Source: Treponema sp.
GTDB taxonomy: Bacteria; Spirochaetota; Spirochaetia; Treponematales; Breznakiellaceae
Direction: 5' to 3'
Assembly: GCA_009785545.1 (NCBI GenBank)
Contig: WQWD01000001.1
Location: 1,344 to 65,343, forward strand
Length of the DNA stretch: 64,000 bases
Below the pieces are notes generated by a model. It was not told the DNA's origin. It ran no database searches and saw only the letters and a program-made list of their open reading frames with translations. A program made the position numbers and the translations under genes. Positions 7,985 through 64,000 of the stretch are shown here, one piece after another. Every line of letters begins with the position of its first letter. Position 1 is the first letter of the stretch.

Positions 7985-9502
7985 TTAGCGATCCCTTAAC
8001 GCATTTAATTGAGACTGGAGTTCATCCTTTACTCTATCAAAACCAGCCTGACGAAGAGCTATGCGGAAATCAGCTACTGCCTGTACGGGATCAGCAGTTT
8101 TTCCAAAGTGTATGGCAGGGAGAAATCTGGCGCAAACATCGCCAATGGCTGCCATTTCCGCAGCTACCCTTGAACCGTCAAAAGAGAAATTTTCCAGAGG
8201 GTAGTCCATTGCAAAAGTGTTCAGATGCTCGACAAAATCATTTCTGCCGTTCCACCAGTGAGTCCATTCGGGTTCAAAGTCATCCCTGCGTCCGCCCCAG
8301 AAGTTGCCATCCAGAGCGTCAGTGAATTGATTAAAACCGGGAGGCAGCGAAAAAACGCCCGGACTATCTTCAATATAATCAATACCTTCAATGCCAAAGT
8401 TATAAAGGATATAGATTTCGCGATCATTACGCAAAAGATCATACATTTGAAGAGCTTTTCTTGGGTTTCTGCTTGCCGCATTAATCGCCATAGCACCATG
8501 AGTTCTAAGATTTCTGTTTACATTATTATTTTCTTTACCAATCCAAAACATCTGAAGCTCTGAACCTGGCTGCTCTCGATCCATTTGCTCACGCAGATTG
8601 AGGAAAGTATGGGTATGGTGTTGATCTGATCCAGAATGACCTGAGAGTAGCATGTTTCTAGTATCGCCATGATAGTTCAGAACATCTTCCCGCCAAAATC
8701 CTCTCTGTCCCCAACGATGGAGTATCTCAGCCACTTCAACTAATTCATCGCCATTCATAAAGTAAGACACAACAGTAAATGGATCGTGAGTATAGTACTG
8801 GAAAATAGCAAAATTCCCTGTAGCAGTTCCGACAATAGTCTGTACGGGTCTTCTGCCCATTATGTATGCTTCAATTAAGAAGATACCGACTCCCGCATTG
8901 GCATCCCATGGGAACGCCTGTGGTTGAGTGGCTCTTACAATTTCCCAGTATGTTTCAAGGTCTTCAAAACGGTCAATGGAATAAAGTCCTCCTGCACGAG
9001 CCCAATCTAAGCGCCAGAACATTCCATGATTTGTAAACTGGGTATATTGGTCCTCAGGAATAAACCAAATGAAACCATCATCGGTGACAATATCCCAAGT
9101 GGACTGTGGAATACTTGCCCAAGTCACGGGAGCATATGTTTCCATCATTTGCGGTGTTATCCCATAAAAAGCTCCACGCCTGACCATTTCCCATGCAAAA
9201 AGCCATGTTGAAGATGTAATCACCAGATCAATACTGGGATCTTGAGATGCTAAAGCTAATTGATACTGAGTCTGCCAGTCCGCCCACCCAATGTAGCGGG
9301 TACGCAGTTCCGCACCAATCCGCTCACGAGTTATTTCATTTATCCGTTCAATAGCGGCGGCATGCCTAGCATTAGTAGGAGCATTACCCAAGAGCAGCAA
9401 AGTGACAGTAGGAATCCTATCCCGTTCGCAAGAACTCATTCCTATACCAAATATAACGATCAACAAAGAAAAGCATAAAACCCTCGTTAATAACTTTTTC
9501 AT
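7985..9502 (-). CDS. Oligosaccharide ABC transporter substrate-binding lipoprotein (LplA/DUF3502 type)
   Basis: Lipobox GMSS-C. Motifs [24 protein letters not shown] and C-terminal [14 protein letters not shown]. Follows two permease genes. Confidence 0.85.
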
Positions 9503-9536
9503 AAAACCTCCATAAAATAATTTAAAACTAAAATAT

Positions 9537-61379: not shown

Positions 61380-61394
61380 TGGAATGTCCGTAGA

Positions 61395-64000
61395 TCACGG
61401 TATCCAAGGTCTGTCGTTGCTGAATTCAAGCCAGCTTATCGGGAAATCTTGACCTGTGAAAATCGTTGGTTGACCCCATACGATTTCTGTAAAACGTGTC
61501 AAATAATCTTCCGGGTTTCTTCCGGCAGCCTGGAAGTAATTTGGTCTATGACGGCGATGGTTTCCAAGTGCATCCATGCCATAAGCTGAGTTCATTGGAG
61601 ACACAGCGATAGGCGGATGGTATCTTTGGCGTTCCAGAAGACCATACATAAACACAAGCTCATATCCGCCGTCCCTTAATTGGGCTGCCTGAGTCAGGAT
61701 TTGAGTCCAGTTTGGCCGTACAGTAGTATCATGTCCATGACCTAAATCAATTGCCATTGGCGAATACATATATCGGGTTGCAGGACCTTCCCCTGTTCGA
61801 GCTAATTGGGAATTAGCAGTAAATGTGCCATAAAAAGGCTGTGTGGAATAGTCGATAAGATCTCCTACTCTACTGTGATTTACTCCGCTTCTCGGGCAAA
61901 CGATAGGGTCATTTAAGAAGAAACGATTCAACCAACCGTACTCATATACAGTGAGCATTTGTCTTCTGCCGGTTCTTTGCTGAATATCGTTAAGAACATA
62001 TCTCATTTCGGCAATGAATTCCATGGCATTATTTGCTTTAACTGTATTTCTCCAGTTAGTCGATTCAGTCACTTGAGCAGCAGTCACAAGAGAACCTCCA
62101 GCGTGCCCCCATCTGTTTCCTTCCGGCCATGTTACTCTATTAGTATTCTGTCCGGTTCCAGCTCCAAAACCAGGACCCATAACTCCTGCTGAAGCCGCAG
62201 GCAAGTTGGCAGTTGAATAGTAATTCCAGCGAGCATGACTTGCACCACATTCATTACACCAGCCGCTTGTCCACCAAAGTGTCTGGTACTGAGCGCCGCC
62301 GGCATTTGCCCATTCACAGTCAAGATCAACACCGTCAAGACCAAGTCTTTCTATTTCTTGACCAATTTGGGTTATCAATGCTGTGCGAGCCGCACGACTA
62401 AAGCGATAATATGGCTGGCCTTGATCATCCACCCAGTTAGCGGGAGGAGCCATACCACGATTACATCTGGCTGTAGTTTGAGGACCTAAGTGCGGATGTC
62501 CGGGGCCTGCCACAGGAGAAATGTCTTCATAAATCCAATCACCCATCGTTGTAAAGGAGAATCCGCCCCAGTCAGGAAGCAGACCCATGATTGCTCTTAT
62601 ACCTTGGGCTTGGATTGGTCTTATAAATGTGTCGACCTGACCTGCCATAGTCATACCGCCGCCATACATGAATGCATGATTGCCGTTAAAGTGCAGGTGA
62701 ATCCCAGTCTGATTACAGTCGTGATTTCTGAATTCCCTACCAGGATTTGCTGCTAACCAGGCCGCTCTTTCTGCAACACAGTCCCTGTCTCTAAGATTTG
62801 CGGCAAAGAGGATTACTGCGTCAAATATCGGTCTGCCGGCATTTCGTGCGGCAAAACCTGTAGCTTCAGGATCATTCCCAAGCGCATAGCTAAGCACAAC
62901 ACGAGGATCGGTTTGGTTCATTTCTATGTAGATGTAATTGAATATAGGCATACCTGTCAGGGTATTGAGTTTTATGTTACCTGTAGGTATCGGGATCATG
63001 TGCTCATCACTCCAACCTCTTTCAGTTCTTAGCTGCACCCACATCCAGTACACACTGGTATTGTGATAACGGCCGGGAAGCGCAAATGACGGGGATGCGA
63101 GGTTTATTGTTCCTGAATGCTCAACGGCTAACGAGCGCCTTCGTGCAAGTGTAGGTATGACATTGTCAGCTGTAGAATGCCAAACTCTATATTCAAGAAT
63201 ACCGGGGATACTATCCCATCCTACAGTTACCGCTACTCGCATTGCAGGATCTTGCGAATCTTGAGTAATTGTGGGCATTCGCAGAGACATCGGCAACGGT
63301 CGTGTGCGTGAAACAGGAGTAGACCATTCACTGTTTCCTTCTGAAGTAACAATCCTGACTCTCGCATGATATGTGAATCCAATCGTAGAGATGATGTTAT
63401 GAGAAGGAGTAGAGGATGTTACTTCTTCCGGATCAGAAAAGTCACTGTCAATATCGTATTCCAATGTATAGCTGATGGAAATACCGGGGTTATTTATAGT
63501 AGTCCATGATACCTCGATTACACCTGTTTCTGCATTGAAGGAATCTACAGTAAGCACAGGCACAGGCATCATAGTAACCTCTTCCCCTACAACCCATCCA
63601 CTCGGGCCGACTGCATTTATTGCACGAACCCAAATATGGTAATTTGCAAAATCAAACAATCCGGTAAGTGTTGTTCCGGTTGCTGTGATATTTGTTGTCC
63701 AAGGCTGTGCGGCTTCTGCGTCATTTGAAGTTCCGAATTTAACCTCGTGGGAGATCACTCCGATAACCGAAGGCCATGTTACTTCAATTGTACCGGGAGT
63801 GGTTCCGGTAGTCAGCGTAACAACCGGATCTGCTGCCTGTGCAAGGGTAGTGGCTGAACCTGCAAGAACCCAATCACTAGGACCGTGTGTATTCACTGCT
63901 CTCACCCAAACAAAATATTCAGTGCCGTTTGCAAGACCCGTAAGCGTTACAGAAGGTATATTTACTGATACTGGAGTTCCTGCTTCGCTTTCTACATTGG
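61395..64000 (-). CDS. Fibronectin-III repeats + GH18 endo-beta-N-acetylglucosaminidase (5' end outside window)
   Basis: Frame is open to base 64000. Fn3 units (TLTGL....Y..WVRA.N..GPS.W). YIEMNQTDP, FDAVILFAANL, IRPIQAQGIR and intact LDGVDLDCE. Confidence 0.85.
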   Translation of the reverse strand, partial: NVESEAGTPVSVNIPSVTLTGLANGTEYFVWVRAVNTHGPSDWVLAGSATTLAQAADPVVTLTTGTTPGTIEVTWPSVIGVISHEVKFGTSNDAEAAQPWTTNITATGTTLTGLFDFANYHIWVRAINAVGPSGWVVGEEVTMMPVPVLTVDSFNAETGVIEVSWTTINNPGISISYTLEYDIDSDFSDPEEVTSSTPSHNIISTIGFTYHARVRIVTSEGNSEWSTPVSRTRPLPMSLRMPTITQDSQDPAMRVAVTVGWDSIPGILEYRVWHSTADNVIPTLARRRSLAVEHSGTINLASPSFALPGRYHNTSVYWMWVQLRTERGWSDEHMIPIPTGNIKLNTLTGMPIFNYIYIEMNQTDPRVVLSYALGNDPEATGFAARNAGRPIFDAVILFAANLRDRDCVAERAAWLAANPGREFRNHDCNQTGIHLHFNGNHAFMYGGGMTMAGQVDTFIRPIQAQGIRAIMGLLPDWGGFSFTTMGDWIYEDISPVAGPGHPHLGPQTTARCNRGMAPPANWVDDQGQPYYRFSRAARTALITQIGQEIERLGLDGVDLDCEWANAGGAQYQTLWWTSGWCNECGASHARWNYYSTANLPAASAGVMGPGFGAGTGQNTNRVTWPEGNRWGHAGGSLVTAAQVTESTNWRNTVKANNAMEFIAEMRYVLNDIQQRTGRRQMLTVYEYGWLNRFFLNDPIVCPRSGVNHSRVGDLIDYSTQPFYGTFTANSQLARTGEGPATRYMYSPMAIDLGHGHDTTVRPNWTQILTQAAQLRDGGYELVFMYGLLERQRYHPPIAVSPMNSAYGMDALGNHRRHRPNYFQAAGRNPEDYLTRFTEIVWGQPTIFTGQDFPISWLEFSNDRPWIP

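Follow-up and report, generated by a model that had tools for sequence, protein, structure and literature searches.

In a 64,000-nucleotide stretch of a Treponema genome (contig WQWD01000001.1; the whole of that stretch is called the window below), proteins that leave the cytoplasm are almost free of lysine and keep their arginine, while cytoplasmic proteins encoded between them are lysine-rich. The contrast extends to the genome as a whole and stops at the cytoplasmic membrane, even where that membrane divides a single polypeptide. We believe that this purge of an entire compartment is most likely an extreme case of a known form of adaptation to high pH, and that the extracytoplasmic proteome of the organism is probably adapted to a pH above 10. 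What we infer from the patterns presented here is that pH exerts the selection, that the bacterium actually resides in the P1 compartment of a termite hindgut, and that its enzymes function there at high pH.

Lysine content and the cytoplasmic membrane

In the window, all long open reading frames (ORFs) were translated and their residues counted, with counts for exported proteins made on mature sequences. Pooled in this way, 22 exported proteins hold 92 lysines in 12,907 residues (0.71%), against 280 in 4,143 (6.76%) for eight cytoplasmic proteins, a contrast with a Fisher p of 2e-97. Lysine stands at 0.3-1.8% and arginine at 4-8% in proteins that carry a signal peptide or lipobox; in those with neither (the DUF2264 protein, GH51, GH2, a response regulator, an AAA ATPase and others), lysine stands at 5-10%. 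The longest lysine-free run, 904 residues, lies in the lipoprotein at 28911..32117. The ORF at 1..1146 (4 K, 39 R within the window) looks like an exception, but it begins with a signal peptide upstream of the window, and therefore fits the rule.

A first-pass annotation of the window, made from the sequence by eye, had drawn attention to this contrast, and its hand counts are reproduced here: one lysine in 1042 residues (28911-32117), one in 763 (24996-27353), and none in 411 (27386-28687) or in 289 (23458-24393). The same is true of the three lysines in each of two proteins that it called barrels (32202-33842 and 59662-61191), of the 4, 4 and 6 in the ABC binding proteins, and of the lysine-rich cytoplasmic GH51 (6481-7983; 33 in 500). 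The exported gene at 61395..64000 is lysine-poor, as had been said, and the entire gene, which extends past the window, has 4 in 1303.

The annotation had also called for a count by export class across the genome (2,645,013 bp in 379 contigs, the longest 66,734 bp; GC content 41.3%; 80% complete), and there the depletion holds. ORFs were called in a simple way, and signal peptides, lipoboxes and transmembrane segments were predicted by a heuristic that is blind to the mature sequence. The median lysine content is then 7.7% for 993 cytoplasmic proteins, 0.95% for 185 lipoproteins, 1.6% for the 336 remaining signal-peptide proteins and 4.5% for 546 membrane proteins, with a Mann-Whitney p of 8e-131 between localisation classes. 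Lysine is absent altogether from 59 of the 521 predicted exported proteins and from 4 of the 993 cytoplasmic ones. The non-lipoprotein signal-peptide class has two modes, the upper of which is probably made up of false signal-peptide calls. Arginine, whose retention had been noted in the window, rises slightly, from 5.1% in cytoplasmic proteins to 5.8-6.5% in the exported classes; the gain is slight next to the loss of lysine, and exported proteins are therefore net losers of basic residues. Five small and convincing lipoproteins, two of them close paralogues, keep 4-6% lysine (C35:9719-10345, C35:11923-12375, C30:6649-7260, C72:8937-9488 and C48:9830-10837), and these might be recent arrivals or face a protected space.

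Depletion tracks the location of a protein, not its export route or its gene. Lysine-poor proteins without a signal peptide are few, and among them are axial flagellar proteins, which spirochaetes export through the flagellar type III apparatus and assemble in the periplasm. Ten Pfam-confirmed proteins of this set that lack a Sec signal (FlgB, FlgC, FliE, FlgG, FlgE, FlgK, FlgL, two FlaB and FliD) together hold 22 lysines in 3,190 residues (0.7%). Within one flagellar operon, located outside the window (C12:7474-15114), FlgB, FlgC, FliE and FliF have 0-1.5% lysine and the next four genes, which from the usual gene order are presumably FliG, FliH, FliI and FliJ, have 4.2-13.6%, a switch that mirrors the membrane side of each product. 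The switch recurs within single polypeptides: in four chemoreceptors the periplasmic sensor domain has 9 lysines in 732 residues (1.2%) and the cytoplasmic part 96 in 1,592 (6.0%; p = 2e-8). It recurs even within the precursors of lipoproteins, whose signal peptides face the cytoplasm and are cleaved off. There, the share of lysine among lysine plus arginine is 0.79 in the signal peptides, as in non-depleted relatives, and 0.17 in the mature parts, against 0.63 in those relatives. A comparison of loops in 170 polytopic membrane proteins gave a weak contrast (7.2% lysine inside, 4.1% outside) and was set aside, the rule used for orientation being crude.

The FlgE hook protein (C109:5776-7176) retains five lysines. 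Spirochaete hooks are cross-linked through a lysine, as lysinoalanine, and at least one of the five should be the cross-link residue.

The reach of the depletion into the periplasm bears on another option raised by the first-pass annotation, namely escape from lysine-specific proteases; these might come from the host or from microbes nearby. Such an escape would predict just what is seen of the basic residues, lysine alone being removed and arginine spared. Yet rod, hook, filament, chemoreceptor sensors, MS ring and binding proteins, all behind the outer membrane, are as thoroughly purged as anything else, and tyrosine and cysteine shift as well. Because these proteases cannot reach the periplasm, where the purge also holds for proteins that never leave it, we consider this explanation extremely unlikely.

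The same controls bear on the idea that lysine itself was never selected against, and that the contrast stems from mutational or GC bias, from foreign exported genes, from a chimeric bin or from amino-acid economy. Overall GC content is indeed slightly higher in exported genes (0.44-0.48, against 0.40-0.43), but at third codon positions (GC3) it is 0.38 in both classes, so the lysine contrast is not an effect of base composition. Lysine-poor genes are interspersed with lysine-rich ones on one contig, the two states meet within single proteins, lysine is preferred in the signal peptides of the very genes that avoid it downstream, and sister genomes of similar GC content are not depleted. Arginine, moreover, costs more nitrogen than lysine, yet it rises. 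The controls within an operon, within a polypeptide and within a gene thus exclude mutational bias, foreign origin and a chimeric bin, and we regard an origin without selection on lysine, economy included, as extremely improbable.

The genes of the window are listed in Table 1. Where the first-pass annotation had named domains, Pfam agrees on GH30, GH43, the binding proteins, GH51, GH2, DUF2264 and the ATPase, and it also assigns a CotH domain; the two GH18 labels (61395-63998 and 58155-59648) fell short of E 1e-5. The most lysine-rich large protein of the window, presumably cytoplasmic, has 1105 residues (50928-54245), with 9.8% lysine and 13.3% glutamate; it carries a hydrophobic segment at the N terminus and matches nothing in Pfam.

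Table 1. Exported proteins and cytoplasmic controls encoded in the window (K, lysine; R, arginine; aa, residues)
Feature	Coordinates	Strand	Composition and remarks
Exported protein, start and signal peptide upstream of window	1..1146	+	5 K, 48 R in 436 aa; no Pfam match
ABC solute-binding lipoprotein (DUF3502 tail)	7985..9502	-	mature 4 K, 38 R in 481 aa
Lipoprotein, Ig-like domain	13887..15755	-	3 K, 32 R in 598 aa
Lipoprotein, F5/8 type C (galactose-binding) domain	15847..18441	-	5 K, 56 R in 839 aa
Signal-peptide protein (earlier label: barrel 1)	18467..19831	-	7 K, 28 R in 427 aa
Large lipoprotein	19948..23439	-	11 K, 80 R in 1138 aa
Lysine-free exported protein	23458..24393	-	0 K, 19 R in 289 aa
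Lipoprotein, three Ig-like domains	24996..27353	-	1 K, 39 R in 763 aa; lysine-free run up to 646 aa
Lysine-free lipoprotein, InlB B-repeat domains	27386..28687	-	0 K, 17 R in 411 aa
Lipoprotein, two Laminin_G_3 lectin-like stretches	28911..32117	+	1 K, 61 R in 1042 aa; lysine-free run 904 aa
Signal-peptide protein (earlier label: barrel 2)	32202..33842	+	3 K, 36 R in 523 aa
GH30 lipoprotein	33847..36543	+	8 K, 51 R in 872 aa
CotH-domain lipoprotein	37184..39124	+	9 K, 42 R in 623 aa
GH43 + Laminin_G_3 lipoprotein	39186..41603	-	5 K, 43 R in 788 aa
ABC solute-binding lipoprotein	41815..43116	+	4 K, 23 R in 403 aa
ABC solute-binding lipoprotein	48728..50014	-	6 K, 31 R in 403 aa
BspA-type leucine-rich-repeat protein, N-terminal anchor or signal	56594..57532	-	2 K in 286 aa
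Lipoprotein	58155..59648	-	7 K, 24 R in 471 aa
Signal-peptide protein (earlier label: barrel 3)	59662..61191	-	3 K, 35 R in 487 aa
Fn3-bearing exported protein extending past window	61395..64000	-	4 K, 70 R in 1303 aa
Cytoplasmic control, DUF2264 protein	1100..3091	-	34 K in 663 aa (5.1%)
Cytoplasmic control, 1053-aa protein	3306..6467	+	62 K (5.9%)
Cytoplasmic control, GH51 arabinofuranosidase	6481..7983	-	33 K in 500 aa (6.6%)
Cytoplasmic control, GH2	11425..13824	-	47 K in 799 aa (5.9%)
Cytoplasmic control, response regulator (LuxR/GerE type)	46224..46913	+	24 K in 229 aa (10.5%)
Cytoplasmic control, AAA_14 ATPase	55209..56426	+	39 K in 405 aa (9.6%)

Replacement of lysine and the titrating side chains

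A general pathway to such a proteome can be proposed. Consider a spirochaete in P1, the strongly alkaline hindgut section, of a higher termite that feeds on humus; this is most likely the habitat here. Its cytoplasm would be kept near neutral, while periplasm and cell surface would take the pH outside, above the pKa of lysine (about 10.5). At such a pH lysine would be uncharged, with salt bridges and solubility lost, and its free amine would be a reactive nucleophile, open to carbamates, to carbonyl and quinone adducts and to lysinoalanine cross-links; arginine would stay charged. Selection would then purge lysine from every protein segment beyond the cytoplasmic membrane, replacing it with arginine where a positive charge is needed, mostly through single changes of AAA or AAG to AGA or AGG, and elsewhere with a polar uncharged residue. 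Lysine would be retained only at invariant, presumably essential positions, and tyrosine and cysteine, which also titrate between pH 8 and 10.5, would be thinned too.

The footprint in the genes resembles this pathway. The share of AGA and AGG among arginine codons is 56% for exported and 33% for cytoplasmic genes at equal GC3, an excess consistent with single A-to-G changes from AAA and AAG. Orthologues were paired with those of less depleted members of the genus, which gave 40 pairs for exported and 111 for cytoplasmic proteins. At positions where the relatives have lysine, the exported proteins of the study genome have arginine in 34% of cases, lysine in 20%, glutamine in 7.5% and asparagine in 6.5%; the cytoplasmic proteins keep lysine at 71%. 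In FlgK and FlgL the retained lysines comprise both columns that are invariant in other members of the genus, together with two at the FlgL N-terminus.

Other residues move as well. Measured against non-depleted relatives of the same genus, exported proteins of the study genome are lower in lysine (1.2%, against 5.6% there, with T. parvum and another family at 7-9%), in tyrosine (2.9% against 4.1%, p = 2e-7) and in cysteine (0.4% against 0.7%, p = 5e-3). They are higher in arginine (6.2% against 4.6%, p = 3e-8; 3.4% in another family) and in histidine (1.8% against 1.3%, p = 1e-4). Aspartate, glutamate, asparagine and glutamine stay the same, and no difference is seen in cytoplasmic values. 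The avoided side chains are those that titrate between pH 8 and 10.5. Upon a modelled shift from pH 7.5 to 11, exported proteins of the study genome change in net charge by -4.5 per 100 residues, those of the non-depleted relatives by -8.9 and those of another family by -11.5.

These compositions also speak to salt as the agent. The anterior hindgut is rich in salt (potassium carbonate), the long aliphatic chain of lysine would promote aggregation in salt, and loss of lysine with gain of arginine is a halophilic strategy too (PMC5433712), so that an adaptation of the halophile type might leave a similar trace. It should, however, bring an excess of acidic residues, and here aspartate plus glutamate come to about 11.6% of exported residues, not above the non-depleted relatives, with a modelled net charge of only -2.8 per 100 residues at pH 7.5. 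We consider such an adaptation very unlikely, and return to high pH as the favoured agent.

Habitat, relatives and repeated origin

The study genome matches Emb289P1_bin65, a member of the Treponema I termite group found in hindgut compartment P1 of Embiratermes neotenicus, which feeds on humus (table of PMC7024585), and searches with RecA and FlgK return matches that are nearly all termite-gut genomes. P1 is highly alkaline, and the P3 and P4 sections in humus feeders and in soil feeders are moderately alkaline or circumneutral (PMC7024585). Of 20 further spirochaete genomes we put 60-120 kb apiece through the same pipeline, and expressed depletion as the median lysine percentage of exported proteins divided by that of cytoplasmic proteins (Table 2). 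The three lowest ratios among the 21 genomes all belong to P1 bins, an outcome with a chance probability of 0.003 given that four P1 bins were present. Exported lysine is not low in the relatives from neutral habitats, on which the first-pass annotation had let the fate of its alkaline explanation hang: it stands at 7.2% in T. parvum and at 5.2% in Breznakiella. Two genomes of another family have 8-9%. An exoproteome adapted to alkaline conditions in a higher termite's anterior hindgut, as that annotation had proposed, is accordingly favoured, both by the P1 match and by the neutral-habitat treponemes that lack the depletion.

Table 2. Ratio of exported to cytoplasmic median lysine in the study genome and other spirochaetes (MAG, metagenome-assembled genome)
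Genome	Origin	Ratio
Th196P1bin3	P1	0.06
Study genome (Emb289P1_bin65 match)	P1	about 0.15
Co191P1bin45	P1	0.24
Emb289P3bin15	P3, humus feeder	0.32
Pal332_bin4	MAG bin	0.34
Th196P3bin148	P3, humus feeder	0.35
Emb289P3bin141	P3, humus feeder	0.42
Co191P3bin32	P3, litter feeder	0.52
CSBr16_92	soda lake	0.56
Emb289P3bin135	P3, humus feeder	0.57
Th196P3bin31	P3, humus feeder	0.63
Co191P1bin8	P1	0.74
Co191P3bin59	P3, litter feeder	0.76
G007	spirochaete genome	0.76
T. parvum	neutral habitat	0.86
G020	another family	0.90
Co333_bin50	MAG bin	0.91
G028	another family	0.99
Breznakiella	neutral habitat	1.01
G011	spirochaete genome	1.03

The wood-feeder end of this gradient is represented by FlgK counts only, and FlgK alone is a weak index, since non-depleted relatives carry just 10-17 lysines in it. 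Kf353_bin19 and other high-GC termite spirochaetes have a low FlgK lysine count (4) alongside a GC content of 0.62. Because low lysine accompanies such a base composition, the FlgK counts are confounded by it, and a cytoplasmic baseline is therefore needed. At the extreme, an FlgK with a single lysine is found, among 160 homologues from genomes and metagenomes, only in Th196P1bin3 besides the study genome. The metagenome contig JGI20163J15578_10004227 encodes an FlgK with only 5 lysines and 58 arginines, which may mark another depleted lineage. For the genes of the window, a search for encoding contigs and an exact-word scan of metagenome contigs, with records of the genome itself set aside, gave no match.

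The difference between compartments also helps to weigh chemical damage, in which small electrophiles plentiful in a gut that digests humus (quinones from oxidised polyphenols, aldehydes, reducing sugars) would attack extracellular lysine amines, selection would eliminate the attacked residue, and high pH would merely accelerate the attack. The first-pass annotation had offered adducts with quinones as an option, and part of it stands, in that such damage would act together with high pH, where the free amine is reactive. The host is a humus feeder, cysteine, another nucleophile, is lowered in exported proteins, and small molecules enter the periplasm, which makes a periplasmic purge compatible with this explanation. 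On the other hand histidine, also a target of quinones, is slightly higher rather than reduced, tyrosine is reduced although it is no amine nucleophile and titrates near pH 10, and no oxidant signal was seen in the P1 of Cornitermes (PMC6345907). The P3 bins of the same humus-feeding hosts, with the same diet chemistry, are far less depleted than the P1 bins. Since the deprotonated amine is itself the reactive species, chemical damage is not fully separable from pH, and we think it an unlikely primary cause. The unreduced histidine, the reduced tyrosine and the contrast of P1 with P3 within the same hosts lead us to favour pH in that role.

The depleted genomes do not form one group. In the FlgK tree (lysine and arginine masked) and in the RecA DNA tree, the three depleted P1 bins stand apart, each beside a less depleted genome, and in a tree of masked FlgK and FlgL together with RecA the study genome adjoins Pal332_bin4, away from Th196P1bin3. 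A clade of the study genome with Th196P1bin3 is rejected by the concatenated FlgK, FlgL and RecA data in an approximately unbiased (AU) test (p = 0.008), but not by the genes taken singly, which have too little power for it (FlgK p = 0.15, RecA p = 0.22), and a clade of all three depleted P1 bins is rejected by FlgK alone (p = 0.003). The RpoB marker was not found in the study genome at the threshold used and was left out of the trees. At the same ancestral lysine columns of FlgK and FlgL, moreover, the study genome and Th196P1bin3 often have different replacement residues. From the concatenated rejection and the differing replacements at shared columns, we conclude that the extreme state arose at least twice.

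Several observations weigh against an alkaline origin of the depletion. One P1 bin, Co191P1bin8 (0.74), is not depleted, and FlgK genes with 10-13 lysines are present in the Co191P1 metagenome. The single soda-lake genome sampled, CSBr16_92, is depleted only moderately (0.56). Asparagine, which is alkali-labile, and the Asn-Gly dipeptide are not reduced in exported proteins. Derivation of a bin from P1 does not prove residence there. The localisation classes are those of a heuristic predictor, and each relative contributed a small sample of 11-28 exported proteins. Lastly, neither MnhE (PF01899, Mrp) nor NhaC (PF03553) antiporters were found in the study genome, which is 80% complete and has one common CPA-type Na+/H+ exchanger (PF00999).

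Th196P1bin3, the most lysine-depleted relative, has three separate MnhE hits (C333:11210-11611, C28:1782-2180 and C317:8054-8419). Among 40 genomes of the genus, only two others have MnhE hits over the family cut-off.

Implications and comparison with known systems

It is about an even question whether the ratio of exported to cytoplasmic lysine is a pH meter that can be read from a genome, evolved convergently in several lineages of Treponema I. If it is, the ratio would separate P1 residents (0.06-0.24) from transients and from dwellers in P3 or neutral habitats (0.3-1.0), uncultured gut bacteria, whatever their phylum, could be allotted to micro-niches by it, and these spirochaetes would be degrading plant glycans at pH 10-12 with lysine-free enzymes. 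The comparison itself is simple, and could order uncultured genomes by the gut pH at which they live. Firmicutes are usually considered dominant in the alkaline anterior hindgut; the present data offer evidence at the level of sequence that some termite-gut treponemes are adapted to its pH of 10-12 and are not simply passing through. Regardless of how the ratio fares, the nearly lysine-free glycoside hydrolases, lectin-like proteins and sugar-binding proteins are candidate alkali-stable enzymes. In this context, the chemistry of one side chain would have reshaped everything on one side of a membrane, within single polypeptides and repeatedly in sister lineages, although the surprise is limited by what is known of individual alkaline enzymes. 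No description of a compartment-wide lysine purge in termite-gut bacteria was found in the literature, which is no proof that none exists, and the recent whole-proteome surveys of pH adaptation that we found do not separate exported from cytoplasmic proteins.

Two known systems resemble the present one in part. Lysine deserts, which guard against ubiquitylation or pupylation, share with it long lysine-free stretches (here up to 904 residues) and the retention of arginine (PMC13696103). They shield cytosolic or host-exposed proteins from lysine-directed tagging, whereas here the cytoplasm is lysine-rich and the extracytoplasmic proteins are purged; the review of such deserts makes no mention of secreted or periplasmic proteins (PMC13696103). 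The acidic proteomes of halophiles likewise have reduced surface lysine, but they carry a large excess of aspartate and glutamate across the whole proteome, and here there is no such excess and the cytoplasm is unaffected.

The closest parallel lies in single enzymes from alkaline settings. Shirai et al. reportedly described alkaline adaptation of this kind in the M-protease and an alkaline cellulase of alkaliphilic Bacillus. Further cases are the octahaem nitrite reductase of Thioalkalivibrio (PMC5433712) and the glycoside hydrolases of Alkalitalea saponilacus, with 1.7-4.7% lysine (PMC13591233), and loss of lysine with gain of arginine in alkali-exposed proteins is a known principle (PMC5433712, PMC13591233). 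The likeness is one of direction and of rationale: at pH 10 or above lysine is fewer and arginine is kept or raised, for the same reasons of charge. In the study genome, by contrast, the shift is proteome-wide, resolved by compartment and far stronger, with a median of about 1% lysine and 59 lysine-free exported proteins, and it extends to the flagellum and to those parts of membrane proteins that lie in the periplasm. The organism, too, is a gut symbiont and not an alkaliphile of soda lakes or soil, and its genus reached this state more than once. The alkaline lysine rule is thus already known; its strength, its completeness, its setting in a gut and its convergence are new.

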